From: Escherichia coli
GTDB taxonomy: Bacteria > Pseudomonadota > Gammaproteobacteria > Enterobacterales > Enterobacteriaceae
Direction: 5' to 3' (one strand)
Assembly: GCF_048403405.1 (NCBI RefSeq)
Contig: NZ_CP183134.1
Length of the DNA stretch: 8,150 nt
Below are positions 1 through 8,150 of this stretch, piece after piece; position 1 is the first letter of the stretch, and each line of letters starts with the position of its first letter. Both the position numbers and the translations under genes were made by a program. The notes below the pieces were generated by a model that saw only the letters and a list, made by a program, of their open reading frames with translations, was not told the origin of the DNA and searched no databases.

Positions 1-653
1 TCTGTTTCGATACCGCGTGTTTCCATCGCACAGGCAGACTTTCCGAGGTGAATACCCGGCGTTTTCTCAAGCCCCTGTCGCTCGTATGAACGATGGTCTA
101 TCTCTTTCTGATAACCGGCGTTCGCCAGTGCCCTGTTTGCATGGTCAGCCCATGATGCACGCCACGTCTCGGCATGTGTCCGGTCGTTCCAGTCCCTGAC
201 CTTTCCGCCGAACCCCGCAGGTCCGACAGCCCTCGTGGTCAGCATAATGTGCGCATGGGGATTTGTTTTATCCATGTGATGGAACGCCACATCAGCAATC
301 ATGCCCTGACTGACAAAGTTTTCTCTGACAAAGGCGAGAACGGTTTCCCGTGCGGCATCCTGCGGCAGTTCGTGGGGGATGGCGAGTTCAATTTCCCGCG
401 CAAGTTGTGAGTTCTTCCGGCGTTCGGCCTTCTCAACGGCATTCCAGAGTTCGGCACGGTTCGTACACCAGGCAGGGGCTGTCGCGGGGGTCAGAATCAC
501 AGCCTCAGCCACACCGCTTTTGCGGGTGTAGTCGTGAGTCAGTCCGGTACGCTCATCAAGCATTAGTGAACCAGAACGATAGGCAGCAGAAGCAACGGCG
601 CTGTAGCCGTTGCTTCTGGAGATGATTTTCATACTGAGATGATAAATCGCCAT
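1..653 (-). CDS. mobA: MobA/MobL-family relaxase (MOBQ-like), 5' portion only (N-terminal ~217 codons); remainder lies before the window start
   Basis: Identical to 4075-4727, which is the 5' end of the full mobA at 2562-4727. ATG on minus strand at 651-653. Not in the ORF track because it runs off the window edge. Confidence 0.8.
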   Translation of the reverse strand, partial: MAIYHLSMKIISRSNGYSAVASAAYRSGSLMLDERTGLTHDYTRKSGVAEAVILTPATAPAWCTNRAELWNAVEKAERRKNSQLAREIELAIPHELPQDAARETVLAFVRENFVSQGMIADVAFHHMDKTNPHAHIMLTTRAVGPAGFGGKVRDWNDRTHAETWRASWADHANRALANAGYQKEIDHRSYERQGLEKTPGIHLGKSACAMETRGIET

Positions 654-831
654 TTCTGCCGTAATGCCTTTTTGCAGTTTTCTTTCAGCCCCGCAGGGCG
701 CACACAATCGAAACGGAGTGGAGATTGTATAAGTGCGCATTTCGTGATTTGCCGTGCATTATGCCAGCTCAGTTTTTAAACTACCAGTGACGCGCTAAAA
801 TGCGATTTTTCATCGCGCATGGAGTTACATC
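654..831. other. Putative oriT in the mobA-mobC divergent intergenic region (nic-like motif TAAGTGCGC at 730-738, inverted repeat ACAATC 704-709 / GATTGT 723-728)
   Basis: The motif gtATAAGTGCGCat resembles the MOBQ/RSF1010-type nic core (GTAAGTGCGCCCT as I recall it) and is immediately preceded by an inverted repeat. Position between divergent relaxase and accessory genes matches RSF1010-type organisation. Confidence 0.5.
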
Positions 832-1086
832 ATGAGCAGAACGCTCGAACAGAAGATTGCTGATGCTGAGGCGAGATTACAGCGCCTGAAGGCGAAGAGC
901 CGGAGCCTGGACACAGCGCAGAAGGTCATTGTGGGTGCAGCATTGCTGGCAAAGGTCAGAAAGCCGGAGGAAGTGCAGTTGCGAGCCTGGTTACTCCAGT
1001 TCCTGAAGGCAGAGGTGACACGGCAGGCTGATGTGACGCGAATACTGCCGCTGATTAACGAGCTGGAGGCGCTGCCAGAGCAGTGA
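832..1086 (+). CDS. mobC: MobC-like relaxosome accessory protein (84 aa)
   Basis: Complete ORF with ATG at 832 and GGAG Shine-Dalgarno at 821-824. Divergent from mobA across the putative oriT. The segment QKVIVGAALLAKVRKPEEVQLRAWLLQFL resembles RSF1010 MobC (RKVLVGAMILAKV...) from memory. Confidence 0.65.
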   Translation: MSRTLEQKIADAEARLQRLKAKSRSLDTAQKVIVGAALLAKVRKPEEVQLRAWLLQFLKAEVTRQADVTRILPLINELEALPEQ

Positions 1087-1095
1087 TTGTATCGT

Positions 1096-1155
1096 CCGCT
1101 CGCCGCAGCCCAGCGACCGAGCGTTAGCGAGCGAGTGGGCGAGGAAGCGGAAGTG
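1096..1155. other. ColE1/pMB1-like conserved segment, possible single-strand initiation / primosome assembly site
   Basis: ccgctcgccgcagcccagcgaccgagcgttagcgagcgagtgggcgaggaagcggaagtg is about 85% identical, by eye, to the pBR322/pUC segment ccgctcgccgcagccgaacgaccgagcgcagcgagtcagtgagcgaggaagcggaagag that lies next to the pMB1 DnaA box. Function is inferred, not shown. Confidence 0.35.
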
Positions 1156-1236
1156 AATCAGTCGCCATGTTGAGCACATACGCACGGTTTTTCGACAGGT
1201 GATATGCGCTGAACCCGCATGAATACTGGATTTCCA

Positions 1237-1281
1237 CAGGATTGGAGGGGGTGTATTCGGAATCTTCAATCCTGGTTTTTT
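1237..1281 (+). terminator. Hairpin followed by T6; candidate intrinsic terminator downstream of mobC, or a structured ori element
   Basis: 8-bp stem CAGGATTG (1237-1244) / CAATCCTG (1267-1274), 22-nt loop, then tttttt at 1276-1281. The loop is unusually long for a canonical terminator. Confidence 0.3.
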
Positions 1282-1325
1282 GCAAAACATTGTTTTTATT
1301 GGATTTTTATTTTCAGCACCCCAAG

Positions 1326-1334
1326 TTATCCACA
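1326..1334 (+). promoter_or_regulatory. DnaA box (TTATCCACA, perfect consensus)
   Basis: Exact 9-mer TTATCCACA, directly upstream of the AT-rich region and iterons. Confidence 0.6.
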
Positions 1335-1431
1335 GGCTCGCCGTTAAGTTTTTAAGATCTTATTTTTAGATCTTTTTTTTTAAAACCTTTTTAGGTCTTG
1401 TAACCACATGATTTTAAAGGTGTTCTGGCGA
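1335..1431. other. AT-rich region of the vegetative origin, with two GATC sites (1356-1359, 1369-1372)
   Basis: Long A/T runs (gttaagtttttaagatcttatttttagatctttttttttaaaacctttttagg) between the DnaA box and the iterons. Layout resembles pSC101-type origins. Confidence 0.5.
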
Positions 1432-1519
1432 GATAGGTGGAGCTTTTGGGGGTGATAGGTGGAGCTTTTGGGGGTGATAGGTGGAGCTTTTGGGGGTGAT
1501 AAGTGGAGCTTTTGGGGGT
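1432..1519 (+). repeat. Iterons: 4 tandem 22-bp direct repeats GATAGGTGGAGCTTTTGGGGGT (the fourth has one mismatch, GATAAGTGG)
   Basis: Perfect head-to-tail repeats at 1432-1453, 1454-1475, 1476-1497 and 1498-1519, immediately upstream of a Rep_3 initiator gene. Confidence 0.85.
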
Positions 1520-1540
1520 GTAATCCACAGAAAAAAGGGG

Positions 1541-1570
1541 TTGCAAAAAAAAAACTTCCACCAATATGAT
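1541..1570 (+). promoter_or_regulatory. Putative repA promoter (-35 TTGCAA 1541-1546, 18-bp spacer, -10 TATGAT 1565-1570)
   Basis: Sigma70-like hexamers about 49 nt upstream of the repA ATG. The -10 overlaps an iteron-like half-site GATAGGTGG at 1568-1576. Confidence 0.4.
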
Positions 1571-1598
1571 AGGTGGCGTACAGTAAAAAAACGCCACC
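1558..1598. promoter_or_regulatory. Inverted repeats carrying iteron half-sites; putative RepA autoregulatory operator
   Basis: CCACC (1558-1562) pairs with GGTGG (1572-1576), and GGTGGCG (1572-1578) pairs with CGCCACC (1592-1598). Both overlap or flank the putative -10. Iteron-family plasmids typically have such operators. Confidence 0.45.
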
Positions 1599-1618
1599 AA
1601 TAGCAACGAGCAAGCGAA

Positions 1619-2320
1619 ATGTCAGATCTGATAGCTTACAAATCAAACGCCCTTATCGAGGCAAGCTACAAGCTCACTTTGCAGGAACAGCGCTTCCTGC
1701 TGGTCTGTATCAGCCGCCTGAAATCCGGAGAAGATTCCCCTTCGCCGGATGAACAAAAAACCATGACCATCACGGCTGCAGAGTTTCATGATGCCTTTCC
1801 TGACATGGGACGGCAGCACGCTGAAGCTAGGCTCAAGGAAGCGATAGATCGCCTCTGGGACAGGTCAGTAATCATCAAGAACGAGGAAAAACGAGAAGAG
1901 TTCCGCTGGGTGCAGTACCGGGCGCAGTATTTCAAAGGTGAGGCGAAAGTAGAGATCACCTTCTCCGATGCCATCATGCCGTATCTGACACAGCTCAAGG
2001 GGCAGTTTACGCGGGTAGTCGTGAAGAACGTCTCCAGCCTCTCCAGCACCTACAGCATCCGCATTTACGAGCTGCTCCAGCAGTTCCGCAGCACCGGTGA
2101 CAGAACGATAGCTATCGATGATTTCCGAACCATGCTTGCCGTTGAAGATAAATATCAACAATTCAAAGACTTGAATAAGATGATAATCAAGCCAGCCATC
2201 GCCGAACTGAACGAAAAAAGCGATCTGGTTGTAACGGTTGAGACGATCAAAAAGGGGCGCACGGTTGTAGCCCTGCACTTTCGCTTCAAGGAAGACAAAC
2301 AGATCAAGATGACGATCTAG
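1619..2320 (+). CDS. repA: Rep_3-family iteron-binding replication initiator (233 aa)
   Basis: Complete ORF directly downstream of the iterons. N-terminus MSDLIAYKSNALIEASYKLTLQEQRFLLVCISRL and later segments (ITFSDAIMPYLTQLK, YSIRIYELLQQF) resemble pSC101/pPS10-type RepA as I recall them. Weak Shine-Dalgarno. Confidence 0.88.
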   Translation: MSDLIAYKSNALIEASYKLTLQEQRFLLVCISRLKSGEDSPSPDEQKTMTITAAEFHDAFPDMGRQHAEARLKEAIDRLWDRSVIIKNEEKREEFRWVQYRAQYFKGEAKVEITFSDAIMPYLTQLKGQFTRVVVKNVSSLSSTYSIRIYELLQQFRSTGDRTIAIDDFRTMLAVEDKYQQFKDLNKMIIKPAIAELNEKSDLVVTVETIKKGRTVVALHFRFKEDKQIKMTI

Positions 2321-2339
2321 AATCGATTTTAAGGCACCT

Positions 2340-2366
2340 AAAACGCTCACTGTCGCGTTTTTCTTG
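2340..2366 (+). terminator. Weak hairpin plus T-run downstream of repA
   Basis: AAAACGC (2340-2346) / GCGTTTT (2355-2361) with an 8-nt loop, followed by ttcttg. The stem is AT-rich, so this would be weak at best. Confidence 0.25.
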
Positions 2367-2427
2367 TGTCAGGAATGCGAAGGTACTATTGAAGTGAAAA
2401 GTTGCGTCAAAAACGCTCTGATGCAGC

Positions 2428-2454
2428 AAAAAAAGAACCCCCAATTTTTGGGGG
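2428..2454 (-). terminator. Rho-independent terminator for minus-strand (mobA) transcription
   Basis: GC-rich hairpin CCCCCAA-ttt-TTGGGGG (2438-2454). On the minus strand it is followed by a U-run (the A7 at 2428-2434 on plus). About 108 nt downstream of the mobA stop. Confidence 0.5.
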
Positions 2455-2561
2455 CGGAAAAACAAAACTATGTTTGCGCTATGTGAGTGTGCTTCTTGCA
2501 TTCATCCCTGTCGATGAACATCGACGAACATAACACGATGTTAAACAAAACAAAATATTGT

Positions 2562-4727
2562 TCACATTCCCTGTGACCAACCGCGATCAGGTCTCCTCTC
2601 GGTGGCGTGTGTTCGTGCATCTTCCTCGCGCCGCCATTCGTCCCAGGTACGATTGAAACCCAGCGAGCGGAACAGATGATCCGGCTGTTTTTCTGGTGTG
2701 TTGACGACAGCAAAAAGCGGTGCCTCACGGGTTTTCAGATGAAACTCCATAAGTTCCGGTGCAGGTGATATGTGGCTGTCTGCATCATGATTTACGGCAA
2801 CACCATACCCTGCATACCGTAACCCCTTATCGGTCAGTGCACTGATAACCAGCTGGCTGTTATCGGCTGAGGGAACGGCAAACGCGGGATACAGCGTACC
2901 ATTAAGCCGGACAACACCGCCCAGAGAGTCATCCACGCCCATGACCAGCAAAAGCTGAAGCTGGCGGGTTTCCCGGTCGACAGAACTCATGACCGGCATC
3001 AGCGTCGGTGGCAGACGTCCCTGCGTAAAATCCACCTTCCTTGCTGCCAGTGATGGCATGGCTGGCTGGCGGTCTTCTCCAAGACAGAAAGACTCCGGCC
3101 ATGTCTTCGGCTGGCGGAGATTGCGGGTATGTTGCGGCCATGTCTGGCAAACCTGCGTCAGAAGTTGCTCAAAGGTCGCAGAGGAATAAATACGTTGCAG
3201 TGGTGGATGTTGGCCGATTTCGCTTCGGTCACAGATATAACCACTCCTGTCACGTATTAAATCAACACTCTCAAAGATCCTGGTGCGGTATTTCTCCAGC
3301 TCGTTCCCCCAGAGCGTGTATTCTCCGTTCCGGTTGTGAAGCAGAAGGTAACAAGTCATTTCCCCGTTACCAGGCATGGGAGCCTCGCCATACCCCGTAA
3401 CGACTGCTCTCAGCACCCCTGAATCCATAACGGCATTGTCATTTTTCCTGAGCTGTTCCGCTCGTCGCTCCGCGCGACTACGTTCTGTATCCTCCAGCTC
3501 CTTCCGGCGTAATTCATCTTCACGTTTAAGCAACTGGGCTCTGAGAGCTGCAAGGCCGGATTCCCCCCACTGCTGCCACTGTTTTTCAAATGCCGTCTGA
3601 CTCGCGGGAATGTCCTGTTTCTCCACCTTCCGGTAATGCTGTCGCAATTTTTCCATTTGCTGGCTCAGAGACTGGATTTTTCCCTGCTCACTACGGTATT
3701 CCGGTGCAGCCCATTGCATCAGGGGAATACGGGAAAAACCGGACGAAAACGGCGATGATTTTTTCAGGCTGGCAGCATGGCTCATCGCTTCCTTTCGTTC
3801 GGTGTTCAGCTCTTCCCAGCGTCTGCGCGTCGCCTGCATATCTGCCATCATCGACATGGCGTTACTGGTGAGTTTCCATGCCGCGTTACTGTCCTTCGGC
3901 AACGCTTCGATGATGTCACGTAGTGTGTACGAAGTTGCGTTGTCAGGAAGCCCGATATTCAGAAGGTCAGCCACACGGCGGGCAGGCTCTGTCAGCCCGC
4001 TGTTCCTGAGTTCGGTGCGGGAAATCTGTATTTCCAGGTTAAGCCTGTTAATCAGACGATTCTGTTCGCCGCGTTCTGTTTCGATACCGCGTGTTTCCAT
4101 CGCACAGGCAGACTTTCCGAGGTGAATACCCGGCGTTTTCTCAAGCCCCTGTCGCTCGTATGAACGATGGTCTATCTCTTTCTGATAACCGGCGTTCGCC
4201 AGTGCCCTGTTTGCATGGTCAGCCCATGATGCACGCCACGTCTCGGCATGTGTCCGGTCGTTCCAGTCCCTGACCTTTCCGCCGAACCCCGCAGGTCCGA
4301 CAGCCCTCGTGGTCAGCATAATGTGCGCATGGGGATTTGTTTTATCCATGTGATGGAACGCCACATCAGCAATCATGCCCTGACTGACAAAGTTTTCTCT
4401 GACAAAGGCGAGAACGGTTTCCCGTGCGGCATCCTGCGGCAGTTCGTGGGGGATGGCGAGTTCAATTTCCCGCGCAAGTTGTGAGTTCTTCCGGCGTTCG
4501 GCCTTCTCAACGGCATTCCAGAGTTCGGCACGGTTCGTACACCAGGCAGGGGCTGTCGCGGGGGTCAGAATCACAGCCTCAGCCACACCGCTTTTGCGGG
4601 TGTAGTCGTGAGTCAGTCCGGTACGCTCATCAAGCATTAGTGAACCAGAACGATAGGCAGCAGAAGCAACGGCGCTGTAGCCGTTGCTTCTGGAGATGAT
4701 TTTCATACTGAGATGATAAATCGCCAT
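2562..4727 (-). CDS. mobA: MobA/MobL-family relaxase, MOBQ-like (721 aa from the MAIYHL start; the ORF track extends to an upstream ATG at 4814)
   Basis: N-terminal MAIYHLSMKIISRSNGYSAVASAAYRSG (Tyr at residue 25, as in RSF1010 MobA), histidine motif NPHAHIML, and WADHANRAL, IDHRSYERQG, GIHLGKS, METRGI all parallel RSF1010 MobA motifs. The upstream ATG at 4812-4814 overlaps the nic-like motif and has no Shine-Dalgarno. Confidence 0.85.
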   Translation of the reverse strand: MAIYHLSMKIISRSNGYSAVASAAYRSGSLMLDERTGLTHDYTRKSGVAEAVILTPATAPAWCTNRAELWNAVEKAERRKNSQLAREIELAIPHELPQDAARETVLAFVRENFVSQGMIADVAFHHMDKTNPHAHIMLTTRAVGPAGFGGKVRDWNDRTHAETWRASWADHANRALANAGYQKEIDHRSYERQGLEKTPGIHLGKSACAMETRGIETERGEQNRLINRLNLEIQISRTELRNSGLTEPARRVADLLNIGLPDNATSYTLRDIIEALPKDSNAAWKLTSNAMSMMADMQATRRRWEELNTERKEAMSHAASLKKSSPFSSGFSRIPLMQWAAPEYRSEQGKIQSLSQQMEKLRQHYRKVEKQDIPASQTAFEKQWQQWGESGLAALRAQLLKREDELRRKELEDTERSRAERRAEQLRKNDNAVMDSGVLRAVVTGYGEAPMPGNGEMTCYLLLHNRNGEYTLWGNELEKYRTRIFESVDLIRDRSGYICDRSEIGQHPPLQRIYSSATFEQLLTQVCQTWPQHTRNLRQPKTWPESFCLGEDRQPAMPSLAARKVDFTQGRLPPTLMPVMSSVDRETRQLQLLLVMGVDDSLGGVVRLNGTLYPAFAVPSADNSQLVISALTDKGLRYAGYGVAVNHDADSHISPAPELMEFHLKTREAPLFAVVNTPEKQPDHLFRSLGFNRTWDEWRREEDARTHATERRPDRGWSQGM

Positions 4728-4905
4728 TTCTGCCGTAATGCCTTTTTGCAGTTTTCTTTCAGCCCCGCAGGGCGCACACAATCGAAACGGAGTGGAGATT
4801 GTATAAGTGCGCATTTCGTGATTTGCCGTGCATTATGCCAGCTCAGTTTTTAAACTACCAGTGACGCGCTAAAATGCGATTTTTCATCGCGCATGGAGTT
4901 ACATC
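4728..4905. other. Putative oriT, copy 2 (nic-like motif at 4804-4812)
   Basis: Identical to 654-831. Confidence 0.5.
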
Positions 4906-5160
4906 ATGAGCAGAACGCTCGAACAGAAGATTGCTGATGCTGAGGCGAGATTACAGCGCCTGAAGGCGAAGAGCCGGAGCCTGGACACAGCGCAGAAGGT
5001 CATTGTGGGTGCAGCATTGCTGGCAAAGGTCAGAAAGCCGGAGGAAGTGCAGTTGCGAGCCTGGTTACTCCAGTTCCTGAAGGCAGAGGTGACACGGCAG
5101 GCTGATGTGACGCGAATACTGCCGCTGATTAACGAGCTGGAGGCGCTGCCAGAGCAGTGA
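4906..5160 (+). CDS. mobC: MobC-like relaxosome accessory protein, copy 2
   Basis: Identical to 832-1086. Confidence 0.65.
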   Translation: MSRTLEQKIADAEARLQRLKAKSRSLDTAQKVIVGAALLAKVRKPEEVQLRAWLLQFLKAEVTRQADVTRILPLINELEALPEQ

Positions 5161-5169
5161 TTGTATCGT

Positions 5170-5229
5170 CCGCTCGCCGCAGCCCAGCGACCGAGCGTTA
5201 GCGAGCGAGTGGGCGAGGAAGCGGAAGTG
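5170..5229. other. ColE1/pMB1-like conserved segment (possible primosome assembly site), copy 2
   Basis: Identical to 1096-1155. Confidence 0.35.
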
Positions 5230-5310
5230 AATCAGTCGCCATGTTGAGCACATACGCACGGTTTTTCGACAGGTGATATGCGCTGAACCCGCATGAATAC
5301 TGGATTTCCA

Positions 5311-5355
5311 CAGGATTGGAGGGGGTGTATTCGGAATCTTCAATCCTGGTTTTTT
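5311..5355 (+). terminator. Hairpin plus T6, copy 2
   Basis: Identical to 1237-1281. Confidence 0.3.
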
Positions 5356-5399
5356 GCAAAACATTGTTTTTATTGGATTTTTATTTTCAGCACCCCAAG

Positions 5400-5408
5400 T
5401 TATCCACA
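5400..5408 (+). promoter_or_regulatory. DnaA box TTATCCACA, copy 2
   Basis: Identical to 1326-1334. Confidence 0.6.
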
Positions 5409-5505
5409 GGCTCGCCGTTAAGTTTTTAAGATCTTATTTTTAGATCTTTTTTTTTAAAACCTTTTTAGGTCTTGTAACCACATGATTTTAAAGGTGTTCT
5501 GGCGA
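5409..5505. other. AT-rich origin region with two GATC sites, copy 2
   Basis: Identical to 1335-1431. Confidence 0.5.
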
Positions 5506-5593
5506 GATAGGTGGAGCTTTTGGGGGTGATAGGTGGAGCTTTTGGGGGTGATAGGTGGAGCTTTTGGGGGTGATAAGTGGAGCTTTTGGGGGT
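5506..5593 (+). repeat. Iterons, 4 x 22 bp, copy 2
   Basis: Identical to 1432-1519. Confidence 0.85.
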
Positions 5594-5614
5594 GTAATCC
5601 ACAGAAAAAAGGGG

Positions 5615-5644
5615 TTGCAAAAAAAAAACTTCCACCAATATGAT
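5615..5644 (+). promoter_or_regulatory. Putative repA promoter, copy 2
   Basis: Identical to 1541-1570. Confidence 0.4.
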
Positions 5645-5672
5645 AGGTGGCGTACAGTAAAAAAACGCCACC
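5632..5672. promoter_or_regulatory. Inverted-repeat operator, copy 2
   Basis: Identical to 1558-1598. Confidence 0.45.
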
Positions 5673-5692
5673 AATAGCAACGAGCAAGCGAA

Positions 5693-6394
5693 ATGTCAGA
5701 TCTGATAGCTTACAAATCAAACGCCCTTATCGAGGCAAGCTACAAGCTCACTTTGCAGGAACAGCGCTTCCTGCTGGTCTGTATCAGCCGCCTGAAATCC
5801 GGAGAAGATTCCCCTTCGCCGGATGAACAAAAAACCATGACCATCACGGCTGCAGAGTTTCATGATGCCTTTCCTGACATGGGACGGCAGCACGCTGAAG
5901 CTAGGCTCAAGGAAGCGATAGATCGCCTCTGGGACAGGTCAGTAATCATCAAGAACGAGGAAAAACGAGAAGAGTTCCGCTGGGTGCAGTACCGGGCGCA
6001 GTATTTCAAAGGTGAGGCGAAAGTAGAGATCACCTTCTCCGATGCCATCATGCCGTATCTGACACAGCTCAAGGGGCAGTTTACGCGGGTAGTCGTGAAG
6101 AACGTCTCCAGCCTCTCCAGCACCTACAGCATCCGCATTTACGAGCTGCTCCAGCAGTTCCGCAGCACCGGTGACAGAACGATAGCTATCGATGATTTCC
6201 GAACCATGCTTGCCGTTGAAGATAAATATCAACAATTCAAAGACTTGAATAAGATGATAATCAAGCCAGCCATCGCCGAACTGAACGAAAAAAGCGATCT
6301 GGTTGTAACGGTTGAGACGATCAAAAAGGGGCGCACGGTTGTAGCCCTGCACTTTCGCTTCAAGGAAGACAAACAGATCAAGATGACGATCTAG
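5693..6394 (+). CDS. repA: Rep_3-family replication initiator, copy 2
   Basis: Protein identical to 1619-2320. Confidence 0.88.
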   Translation: MSDLIAYKSNALIEASYKLTLQEQRFLLVCISRLKSGEDSPSPDEQKTMTITAAEFHDAFPDMGRQHAEARLKEAIDRLWDRSVIIKNEEKREEFRWVQYRAQYFKGEAKVEITFSDAIMPYLTQLKGQFTRVVVKNVSSLSSTYSIRIYELLQQFRSTGDRTIAIDDFRTMLAVEDKYQQFKDLNKMIIKPAIAELNEKSDLVVTVETIKKGRTVVALHFRFKEDKQIKMTI

Positions 6395-6413
6395 AATCGA
6401 TTTTAAGGCACCT

Positions 6414-6440
6414 AAAACGCTCACTGTCGCGTTTTTCTTG
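6414..6440 (+). terminator. Weak hairpin plus T-run downstream of repA, copy 2
   Basis: Identical to 2340-2366. Confidence 0.25.
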
Positions 6441-6501
6441 TGTCAGGAATGCGAAGGTACTATTGAAGTGAAAAGTTGCGTCAAAAACGCTCTGATGCAG
6501 C

Positions 6502-6528
6502 AAAAAAAGAACCCCCAATTTTTGGGGG
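6502..6528 (-). terminator. Rho-independent terminator for mobA, copy 2
   Basis: Identical to 2428-2454. Confidence 0.5.
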
Positions 6529-6635
6529 CGGAAAAACAAAACTATGTTTGCGCTATGTGAGTGTGCTTCTTGCATTCATCCCTGTCGATGAACATCGACG
6601 AACATAACACGATGTTAAACAAAACAAAATATTGT

Positions 6636-8150
6636 TCACATTCCCTGTGACCAACCGCGATCAGGTCTCCTCTCGGTGGCGTGTGTTCGTGCATCTTCCT
6701 CGCGCCGCCATTCGTCCCAGGTACGATTGAAACCCAGCGAGCGGAACAGATGATCCGGCTGTTTTTCTGGTGTGTTGACGACAGCAAAAAGCGGTGCCTC
6801 ACGGGTTTTCAGATGAAACTCCATAAGTTCCGGTGCAGGTGATATGTGGCTGTCTGCATCATGATTTACGGCAACACCATACCCTGCATACCGTAACCCC
6901 TTATCGGTCAGTGCACTGATAACCAGCTGGCTGTTATCGGCTGAGGGAACGGCAAACGCGGGATACAGCGTACCATTAAGCCGGACAACACCGCCCAGAG
7001 AGTCATCCACGCCCATGACCAGCAAAAGCTGAAGCTGGCGGGTTTCCCGGTCGACAGAACTCATGACCGGCATCAGCGTCGGTGGCAGACGTCCCTGCGT
7101 AAAATCCACCTTCCTTGCTGCCAGTGATGGCATGGCTGGCTGGCGGTCTTCTCCAAGACAGAAAGACTCCGGCCATGTCTTCGGCTGGCGGAGATTGCGG
7201 GTATGTTGCGGCCATGTCTGGCAAACCTGCGTCAGAAGTTGCTCAAAGGTCGCAGAGGAATAAATACGTTGCAGTGGTGGATGTTGGCCGATTTCGCTTC
7301 GGTCACAGATATAACCACTCCTGTCACGTATTAAATCAACACTCTCAAAGATCCTGGTGCGGTATTTCTCCAGCTCGTTCCCCCAGAGCGTGTATTCTCC
7401 GTTCCGGTTGTGAAGCAGAAGGTAACAAGTCATTTCCCCGTTACCAGGCATGGGAGCCTCGCCATACCCCGTAACGACTGCTCTCAGCACCCCTGAATCC
7501 ATAACGGCATTGTCATTTTTCCTGAGCTGTTCCGCTCGTCGCTCCGCGCGACTACGTTCTGTATCCTCCAGCTCCTTCCGGCGTAATTCATCTTCACGTT
7601 TAAGCAACTGGGCTCTGAGAGCTGCAAGGCCGGATTCCCCCCACTGCTGCCACTGTTTTTCAAATGCCGTCTGACTCGCGGGAATGTCCTGTTTCTCCAC
7701 CTTCCGGTAATGCTGTCGCAATTTTTCCATTTGCTGGCTCAGAGACTGGATTTTTCCCTGCTCACTACGGTATTCCGGTGCAGCCCATTGCATCAGGGGA
7801 ATACGGGAAAAACCGGACGAAAACGGCGATGATTTTTTCAGGCTGGCAGCATGGCTCATCGCTTCCTTTCGTTCGGTGTTCAGCTCTTCCCAGCGTCTGC
7901 GCGTCGCCTGCATATCTGCCATCATCGACATGGCGTTACTGGTGAGTTTCCATGCCGCGTTACTGTCCTTCGGCAACGCTTCGATGATGTCGCGTAGTGT
8001 GTACGAAGTTGCGTTGTCAGGAAGCCCGATATTCAGAAGGTCGAGCCACACGGCGGGCAGGCTCTGTCGGCCCCGCTGTTCCTGAGTTCGGTGCGGGAAA
8101 TCTGTATTTCCAGGTTAGGCCTGTTAATCAGACGATTCTGTTCGCCGCGT
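6636..8150 (-). CDS. mobA: MobA relaxase, copy 2; 5' end runs off the window and carries apparent frameshifts near 8043 and 8071 relative to copy 1
   Basis: Identical to copy 1 up to about 7991. The ORF track ends at a GTG at 8051 because two 1-bp insertions shift the frame. I suspect these are consensus errors at a contig end rather than a true pseudogene. Confidence 0.6.

Follow-up and report, generated by a model that had tools for sequence, protein, structure and literature searches.

The MOBQ41 plasmids, described by Garcillan-Barcia et al. in 2019 (PMC6856555) with pIGWZ12 as prototype and named 'MOBrepB1' by Branger et al. in 2019 (PMC6807383), are small cryptic plasmids of enterobacteria. 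Approximately 15 copies per chromosome have been reported for the family (members pRC1/pE2022_4 and pIGWZ12), plasmids of the IncI1/MPF_I type are its best mobilizers and preferred helpers, and no benefit for the host is known in the literature (PMC6856555). Here we analysed a stretch of 8150 bases from Escherichia coli (contig NZ_CP183134.1 of assembly GCF_048403405.1), which will be referred to as the window and which consists of a head-to-tail repeat with a period of 4074 bp, present in two copies. The 4074 bp unit is a member of this already described group. It has three supported genes, mobA, mobC and repA, and with them functions in replication and mobilization only. Taking all lines of evidence together, it is very probable that the window represents a MOBQ41 cryptic plasmid without cargo or a dedicated stability gene, which replicates by an iteron-dependent theta mechanism, is maintained by its copy number, is mobilized by a helper and has entered the database as a doubled contig.

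Assignment to the MOBQ41 Group

Over its full length the unit showed 99.9% identity to many 4074 bp plasmids of E. coli and Salmonella, and records of identical plasmids are typed by MOB-suite as MOBQ / rep_cluster_1778. It was matched in 566 out of 5426 complete E. coli genomes (~10%). Since the defining features of the group are all present in the unit, namely the six catalytic residues of the relaxase, a Rep_3 initiator, an iteron origin, a 178 bp origin of transfer (oriT) and a cryptic constitution at a size of ~4 kb, it was assigned to MOBQ41. The prototype pIGWZ12 (NC_010885, 4072 bp) agrees with the unit in size, gene order and the 178 bp oriT, and likewise possesses a Rep_3 initiator with iterons, a DnaA box and an AT-rich region. 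Nucleotide identity between the two amounts to 90.5%, with 97.5% for MobA and 97.6% for MobC, whereas identity in RepA falls to 80% and the iterons read ATAGGTGGAGCTTTTGGGGGTG in the unit and GGTGGAGGAATTTAAGGTAAAG in pIGWZ12. Because of these differences in RepA and the iterons, we take the window plasmid to be a different replicon-specificity allele on a MOBQ41 mobilization backbone. Further members of the group that resemble the unit are pE2022_4, pSE11-6 and pEC958B.

The sister group MOBQ42, comprising ColE9-J / ColE2-like colicin plasmids, carries a homologous mobA-oriT-mobC module, which is ~84% identical to nucleotides 1-1068 of the window and 80% identical in the relaxase domain. In contrast to the unit, these plasmids depend on a ColE2-type replicon and carry both a colicin operon and a cer-like site (PMC6856555).

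Gene Content and Search for Cargo and Resolution Sites

The relaxase gene mobA (also mobQ; 2562..4727, minus strand, 721 amino acids) extends across the junction of the two copies and thus occupies monomer coordinates 2562-4074 plus 1-653. The annotation is supported by RefSeq records of identical plasmids, and the deduced protein matches Pfam MobA_MobL (E = 3.4e-70, amino acids 18-213) and the NCBIfam MobQ equivalog (264 bits, with a cut-off of 200 bits). An alternative start at 4814, resulting in an open reading frame (ORF) of 750 amino acids, is not conserved. The second gene, mobC (832..1086, plus strand), is annotated in RefSeq records of identical plasmids as encoding a relaxase accessory protein and has a length of 84 amino acids; no profile in Pfam or NCBIfam matched MobC. 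The third gene, repA (1619..2320, plus strand), encodes an initiator of 233 amino acids with matches to Pfam Rep3_N (E = 3e-41) and Rep3_C (E = 3e-22), which is of the Rep_3 type (PF01051) and not of the ColE2 type. Ten related plasmids (81-99.9% identity) were rotated and aligned to evaluate ORF integrity and the ratio of nonsynonymous to synonymous polymorphism (pN/pS). This ratio was 0.15-0.24 for mobA, 0.09 for mobC and 0.18 for repA.

On the circular monomer, 41 further ORFs of at least 30 amino acids were scanned against Pfam, NCBIfam, PADLOC and PHROGs, and nothing above threshold was obtained for any of them. An Rfam scan with E <= 1 yielded 0 matches. The initial annotation of this DNA, made from the sequence alone, had found no resistance or other cargo gene and no toxin-antitoxin, partition, restriction-modification or defence gene, and this was borne out by the four libraries and Rfam, in which antisense and intergenic ORFs were likewise without a significant match. 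The sole match below E 0.01 (MtN3_slv, E = 3e-4) reached 21.1 bits, which is less than the gathering threshold of 23.7 bits, and was discarded; the respective ORF of 87 amino acids (1786-2049, minus strand) is located antisense within repA and is truncated in 8 of the 10 relatives.

Selection patterns were then compared between frames. Overlapping frames showed pN/pS values of 1.2-8 in all cases tested but one (0.25), as against 0.11-0.32 for the mobA frame over the same spans, and these substitution patterns fit an explanation by mobA coding alone. Two ORFs located antisense in mobA were intact in 10 out of 10 relatives. One, with 119 amino acids, had a pN/pS of 3.1. The other, with 107 amino acids (3802-4125), accounts for the value of 0.25, which is due solely to its sharing third codon positions with mobA. 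When mobA was shuffled by synonymous codons, the longest overlapping ORF had a mean length of 144 amino acids, compared to 119 observed. As shuffling yields longer ORFs by chance, and on the basis of the pN/pS values, the antisense ORFs in mobA were rejected as genes.

A multimer-resolution site of the cer/dif/psi type was sought as a 28-30 bp Xer core made up of a XerC arm, a spacer of 6-8 bp and a XerD arm. The reference sites scored 18-22 (dif 22, cer 19, psi 19). The best core in the unit had 14 out of 22 arm matches, identical to the median best of 100 random sequences, consistent with the earlier statement that no convincing resolution site is present. Reliance on copy number and a helper, also proposed there, agrees with the ~15 copies and the IncI1/MPF_I helpers known for the family (PMC6856555). 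The negative finding on cargo and stability genes is correct but ordinary: it concerns a textbook cryptic mobilizable plasmid, the family of which is already known and is represented in about a tenth of complete E. coli genomes. Two modest leads emerged in addition, a Sog-like domain in MobA and a primosome assembly site, both of which are described below.

The Two-Copy Layout of the Contig

Global alignment of the two halves of the window demonstrated that copy 2 (4075-8150, 4076 bp) differs from copy 1 (1-4074, 4074 bp) by three A>G substitutions at 7992, 8069 and 8118 and by 1-base insertions at 8043 and 8071, and is otherwise identical. All five differences (7992-8118) fall within the final 160 bases of the contig. 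One of the two insertions extends a run of C, and the end differences shift the frame of the mobA gene in copy 2, leaving a truncated ORF of 471 amino acids. The differences look like residual long-read errors, in a pattern typical of unpolished contig ends. Near-identical and related plasmids among the matches listed from PLSDB and RefSeq E. coli were all monomers of 4060-4091 bp. Moreover, it has been documented that long-read assemblers sometimes output contigs of ~200% for small plasmids (Wick and Holt, PMC6966772).

An incompletely trimmed assembly was also encountered among the relatives. Plasmid CP088758.1 (L020), deposited as a complete plasmid of 5671 bp, is a 1.39-mer of a 4082 bp relative, in which 1-1589 is repeated at 4083-5671 with an overlap of 1589 bp and 100% identity. 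This is an untrimmed circular assembly, and such assemblies do occur within the family of the window plasmid.

Since the error-like differences are clustered at the contig end, the relatives have monomer length, a 1.39-mer exists and duplication by assemblers is documented, we read the two-copy form as an artefact: the window most likely stems from the doubling of a long-read contig whose end errors were left unpolished, and not from a biological dimer. The alternative is a true head-to-tail plasmid dimer accumulating for want of a multimer-resolution site, as implied by the initial annotation, which had considered the lack of such a site to fit a dimeric form. An exact 2.0-mer, as the two-unit array is, would equally be expected from a true dimer; both an Xer core site and a recombinase gene are absent from the unit, and a cer-like site has been reported for the sister MOBQ42 group only (PMC6856555). 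This alternative is nevertheless unlikely, given the position and nature of the five differences, the uniformly monomeric relatives among the matches listed, the 1.39-mer from the same family, the known behaviour of assemblers and, in addition, the finding that plasmids of the family were retained to 100% in recA+ as well as recA- hosts when followed for 80 generations (PMC6856555). The proposed connection between the missing site and a dimeric state was consequently abandoned. In practical terms, the value of the doubled contig lies mainly in the warning that such a contig of a small plasmid is not to be taken for biology.

MobA and Its Sog-Like C-Terminal Domain

The relaxase domain of MobA (amino acids 1-240; 4008..4727, minus strand) matches the PDB structures 4HT4 (NES, E = 6e-28) and 2NS6 (R1162 MobA, E = 4e-10). 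The catalytic residues are located at the positions published for MOBQ4 relaxases (PMC6856555), namely Y25 in motif I, E87/E89 in motif II and H125/H133/H135 in motif III. Judging from the match to 2NS6, the relaxase fold and the catalytic motifs are common to the window protein and MobA of RSF1010/R1162. The two proteins differ in their C-termini, as that of RSF1010 MobA is a primase, which primes at the ssi sites of the plasmid itself, whereas the window plasmid has a Sog-C-terminal-like domain and a putative host PriA-type site in place of primase and Toprim.

The presence of mobA had been recognized correctly in the initial annotation, but the gene had been handled as a single block. The C-terminal third of MobA is a module which it has in common with the Sog protein of helper plasmids. 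Using BLASTP, amino acids 439-698 of MobA (2634..3413, minus strand) were aligned with residues 947-1231 of the 1255-residue Sog of the I-complex (IncI-type) with 46% identity (E = 1e-68), and the final 110 residues of the alignment were far better conserved, roughly three quarters being identical. The region thus corresponds to the last ~285 residues of SogL/SogS of the IncI1 plasmids R64 and ColIb-P9. Unlike MobA, which bears a relaxase domain instead, Sog has an N-terminal Toprim primase domain (265-365) and an LPD7 domain (775-862), neither of which is covered by the homology. A 'low homology to SogL primases' has been mentioned in one paper, without a link to helper choice (PMC6856555). 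A primase in the C-terminus of MobA, as this remark might suggest, was considered and rejected, the homology being to the non-primase end of Sog; no Toprim or primase match was obtained for MobA with the Pfam and NCBIfam profiles. Since the similarity to Sog is limited to residues 947-1231 and lies outside Toprim, the window MobA is not a relaxase-primase.

The Sog-like domain was detected by tblastn in 1845 conjugative plasmids, and only 82 matches were retrieved when 1.84 billion representatives were searched exhaustively with HMMER. The full-length matches examined were all Sog-like primases or MOBQ4-like relaxases, bar three repetitive proteins which were judged to be spurious. An AlphaFold2 model of the domain predicted a beta-barrel with a predicted local distance difference test score (pLDDT) of ~85-94 over residues 82-285, for which no significant match was found among PDB structures.

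Comparison of the two parts of the protein yielded different relationships. The C-terminus of the window MobA is 46% identical to IncI Sog and only 40% identical to that of MOBQ42 MobA. The C-terminus of P0105, a MOBQ4-like relaxase, is 77% identical to the Sog variant P0098 and 25% identical to that of the window MobA. The N-terminal relaxase domains of those same proteins are mutually 71-80% identical. The kinship of the C-termini thus cuts across relaxase and Sog architectures, with relaxase C-termini grouping with differing Sog variants and not together, which suggests an exchange of modules with helper plasmids.

Sog proteins are carried into recipient cells by the I1 system, and it has been proposed that they coat the strand undergoing transfer (PMC6112013). 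We tentatively propose, as a possibility for which the chances are somewhat less than even, that amino acids 439-698 of MobA act as a helper-matching 'passport' module, which mobilizable relaxases exchange with the transported Sog of I-complex plasmids. Being common to MobA and the transported Sog of the helper, this domain would bring the relaxase together with its DNA to the I-type (Dot/Icm-like) secretion system. If true, this would account for the superiority of MPF_I plasmids as helpers, and a domain which mobilizable relaxases and the helper primase share and have apparently swapped would provide a testable basis for helper specificity.

An internal ATG is present at M315 of MobA (window position 3785, minus strand), preceded by the Shine-Dalgarno-like sequence AAGGA. 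By analogy with SogS or with RepB' of RSF1010, it is conceivable that an internal start gives rise to a separate C-terminal MobA protein. No convincing ribosome-binding site was found for M434, which is located just ahead of the Sog-like domain.

Transfer Region and Putative Primosome Assembly Site

As in RSF1010/R1162 (IncQ1, MOBQ1), mobA and mobC are arranged divergently around oriT. The intergenic gap of 178 bp (654..831, plus strand; second copy 4728-4905) corresponds in length and position to the experimentally mapped MOBQ4 oriT, and deletion of mobC has been reported to reduce mobilization by ~1.5 log (PMC6856555). The gap contains an inverted repeat, ACAATC...GATTGT (704-728), and 3' of it the motif TAAGTGCG/CA (730-739), in which the nick is predicted after base 737 on the plus strand. 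The nick was placed by analogy with RSF1010/R1162, the nick site of which, TAAGTGCG/CCCT, is similar. As TAAGTGCG/CA follows an inverted repeat in the same way as in RSF1010, the nick was assigned to the plus strand, and this strand is predicted to be transferred with mobC first. The single-stranded oriT folded with a stability no greater than that of shuffled sequences. According to this arrangement, MobA, aided by MobC, would nick the 178 bp oriT, and the plus strand would move in the 5'->3' direction, the mobC end leading, through the secretion system of a helper, best of all an IncI1/MPF_I plasmid.

The list of elements in the initial annotation (mobA, oriT, mobC, origin, repA and terminators) proved to be correct as far as it went but had overlooked a further element at 1096..1153 (plus strand; second copy 5170-5227), a putative ColE1-type primosome assembly site (n'-pas / ssiA-like) which includes AAGCGG. 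In the alignment of the ten related plasmids it represents the most conserved intergenic block (99.6%), and a related core was found in at least 5000 plasmids of enterobacteria with many different backbones. The block aligns with sequences of pPCP1 and pEcoUTI1c, with near-invariant columns across the core. In these two plasmids, in which the position of the ColE1-type origin was fixed by the Rfam RNAI match, the element lies ~550-650 nt from the RNAI gene and ~100-160 bp past the ColE1 origin. In ColE1-type plasmids, n'-pas/ssiA recruits PriA (PMC3167613). The site in the window resembles n'-pas (ssiA) of ColE1/pMB1 in its near-identical core of ~58 nt and in its orientation, which is that of the displaced, active ColE1 strand (RNAII-sense), here the plus strand; it differs in being located beside an iteron origin and not downstream of an RNAII primer origin. 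The designation as a primosome assembly site is based on this homology and on the position of the element in ColE1-type plasmids.

On the plus strand, which is predicted to be the transferred one, the site follows the predicted nick at a distance of ~360 nt in the 3' direction. It would enable host PriA to prime the complementary strand in the recipient, or the lagging strand at the iteron origin, and would in this way take over from the primase that is linked to the relaxase in IncQ plasmids and has no counterpart in the window MobA. A putative PriA-type site on the predicted transferred strand, in a relaxase family without a linked primase, be it by loss or from the outset, is of possible interest to plasmid biologists.

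Unassigned Sequence and the Possibility of a Hidden Function

Apart from the exact doubling of the contig, several points weigh against the overall interpretation as a cargo-free MOBQ41 plasmid. An ORF of 37 amino acids with a TTG start (1242-1355, plus strand), running across the DnaA box of the origin, is intact in 10 out of 10 relatives. The published family description (PMC6856555) lists a fourth gene for a 'hypothetical protein', which could not be matched to any ORF in the window. No role is assigned to approximately 170 bp (1154-1325) or to parts of the region 2321-2561. The nick position, the transferred strand and the assembly site were assigned by similarity and analogy only, and the single-stranded fold of the assembly site is statistically unremarkable (z -0.65 compared to shuffles). 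The earlier claim that the unit is fully accounted for consequently stands for the genes, oriT and the origin, and does not extend to the assembly site, the ~170 bp and the parts of 2321-2561.

With respect to the small ORF at 1242-1355, no usable spacing to a ribosome-binding site was found, and it lies within the non-coding origin region. As this region is itself 95-97% conserved, conservation is uninformative here, and the ORF is probably not a gene. That the plasmid is not truly cargo-free and conceals a function in the Sog-like C-terminus of MobA or in a small ORF or RNA, for example coating of single-stranded DNA or, on delivery into the recipient, promotion of establishment or countering of defence, appears quite improbable: the C-terminal two thirds of MobA (~480 amino acids, a third of the plasmid) are without a family assignment, Sog proteins with the same domain enter recipients and may coat the transferred strand (PMC6112013), and the fourth published gene and the intact ORF 1242-1355 would be in line with such a function, but the extra ORFs match nothing in PADLOC, Pfam, NCBIfam or PHROGs, the overlapping ORFs show no purifying selection in their own frames and do not exceed the length expected by chance, and the literature finds no benefit from these plasmids (PMC6856555).

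Replication Module

In the cargo-free MOBQ41 plasmid favoured here, replication is assigned to a vegetative origin (oriV) with a core at 1326..1529 (plus strand) and to the adjoining repA gene. The core comprises a perfect DnaA box TTATCCACA (1326-1334), the oriC-type 13-mers GATCTTATTTTTA and GATCTTTTTTTTT (1356-1381), four 22 bp iterons ATAGGTGGAGCTTTTGGGGGTG (1433-1520) and a second DnaA-like box with 1 mismatch (1521-1529). For the 13-mer pattern, 14 matches were counted compared to 2.8 expected. The same architecture has been described for the origin of pIGWZ12, for which four DnaA boxes are published (PMC6856555), as against two at up to 1 mismatch in the origin of the unit. In the proposed mode of theta replication, the Rep_3 initiator would bind the four iterons adjoining the DnaA box and the AT-rich 13-mers, and the plasmid would be maintained by copy number and not by partition, a toxin-antitoxin system or Xer resolution.

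Between the iterons and repA, a promoter scan identified a promoter-like site, TTGCAA-18-TATGAT (1541-1570, plus strand), which overlaps inverted half-iterons CCACC...ATAGGTGG (1558-1576); a hairpin GGTGGCG...CGCCACC is located at 1572-1598. Iteron plasmids are usually designed such that the initiator represses its own promoter. Following this usual design, the region 1541-1598 is a probable operator for autorepression, at which RepA would repress its own promoter by way of the inverted half-iterons. In the convergent intergenic region between repA and mobA (2321..2561), terminator-like hairpins were found at 2340-2361 (plus strand) and at 2437-2455, the latter being bidirectional and flanked by runs of A and T.

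In a comparison with loci L003, L006-L013 and L022, divergence within window positions 1350-2200 was centred on the iterons and repA (57-85% column identity), whereas the mobilization backbone was conserved to 95-99%. At least four iteron/RepA alleles were distinguished. This divergence fits a diversifying incompatibility specificity.

The origin and repA alone (window 1326-2311) were also found, with 84-91% identity, on 6.9 kb plasmids of Klebsiella and E. coli (H78, NZ_CP125148.1, and H81, NZ_LR890717.1), the remaining sequence of which has no match to the window. The occurrence of this module on these plasmids points to modularity of the replicon. Finally, a stretch of 217 bp corresponding to window positions 1178-1393 was detected with 93% identity on a 144 kb IncF/IncR plasmid of Shigella (L016, NZ_CP055071.1). 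It contains the DnaA box and the AT-rich region without the iterons, is located between IS26 and ISKpn26, and may be the remnant of a small replicon.

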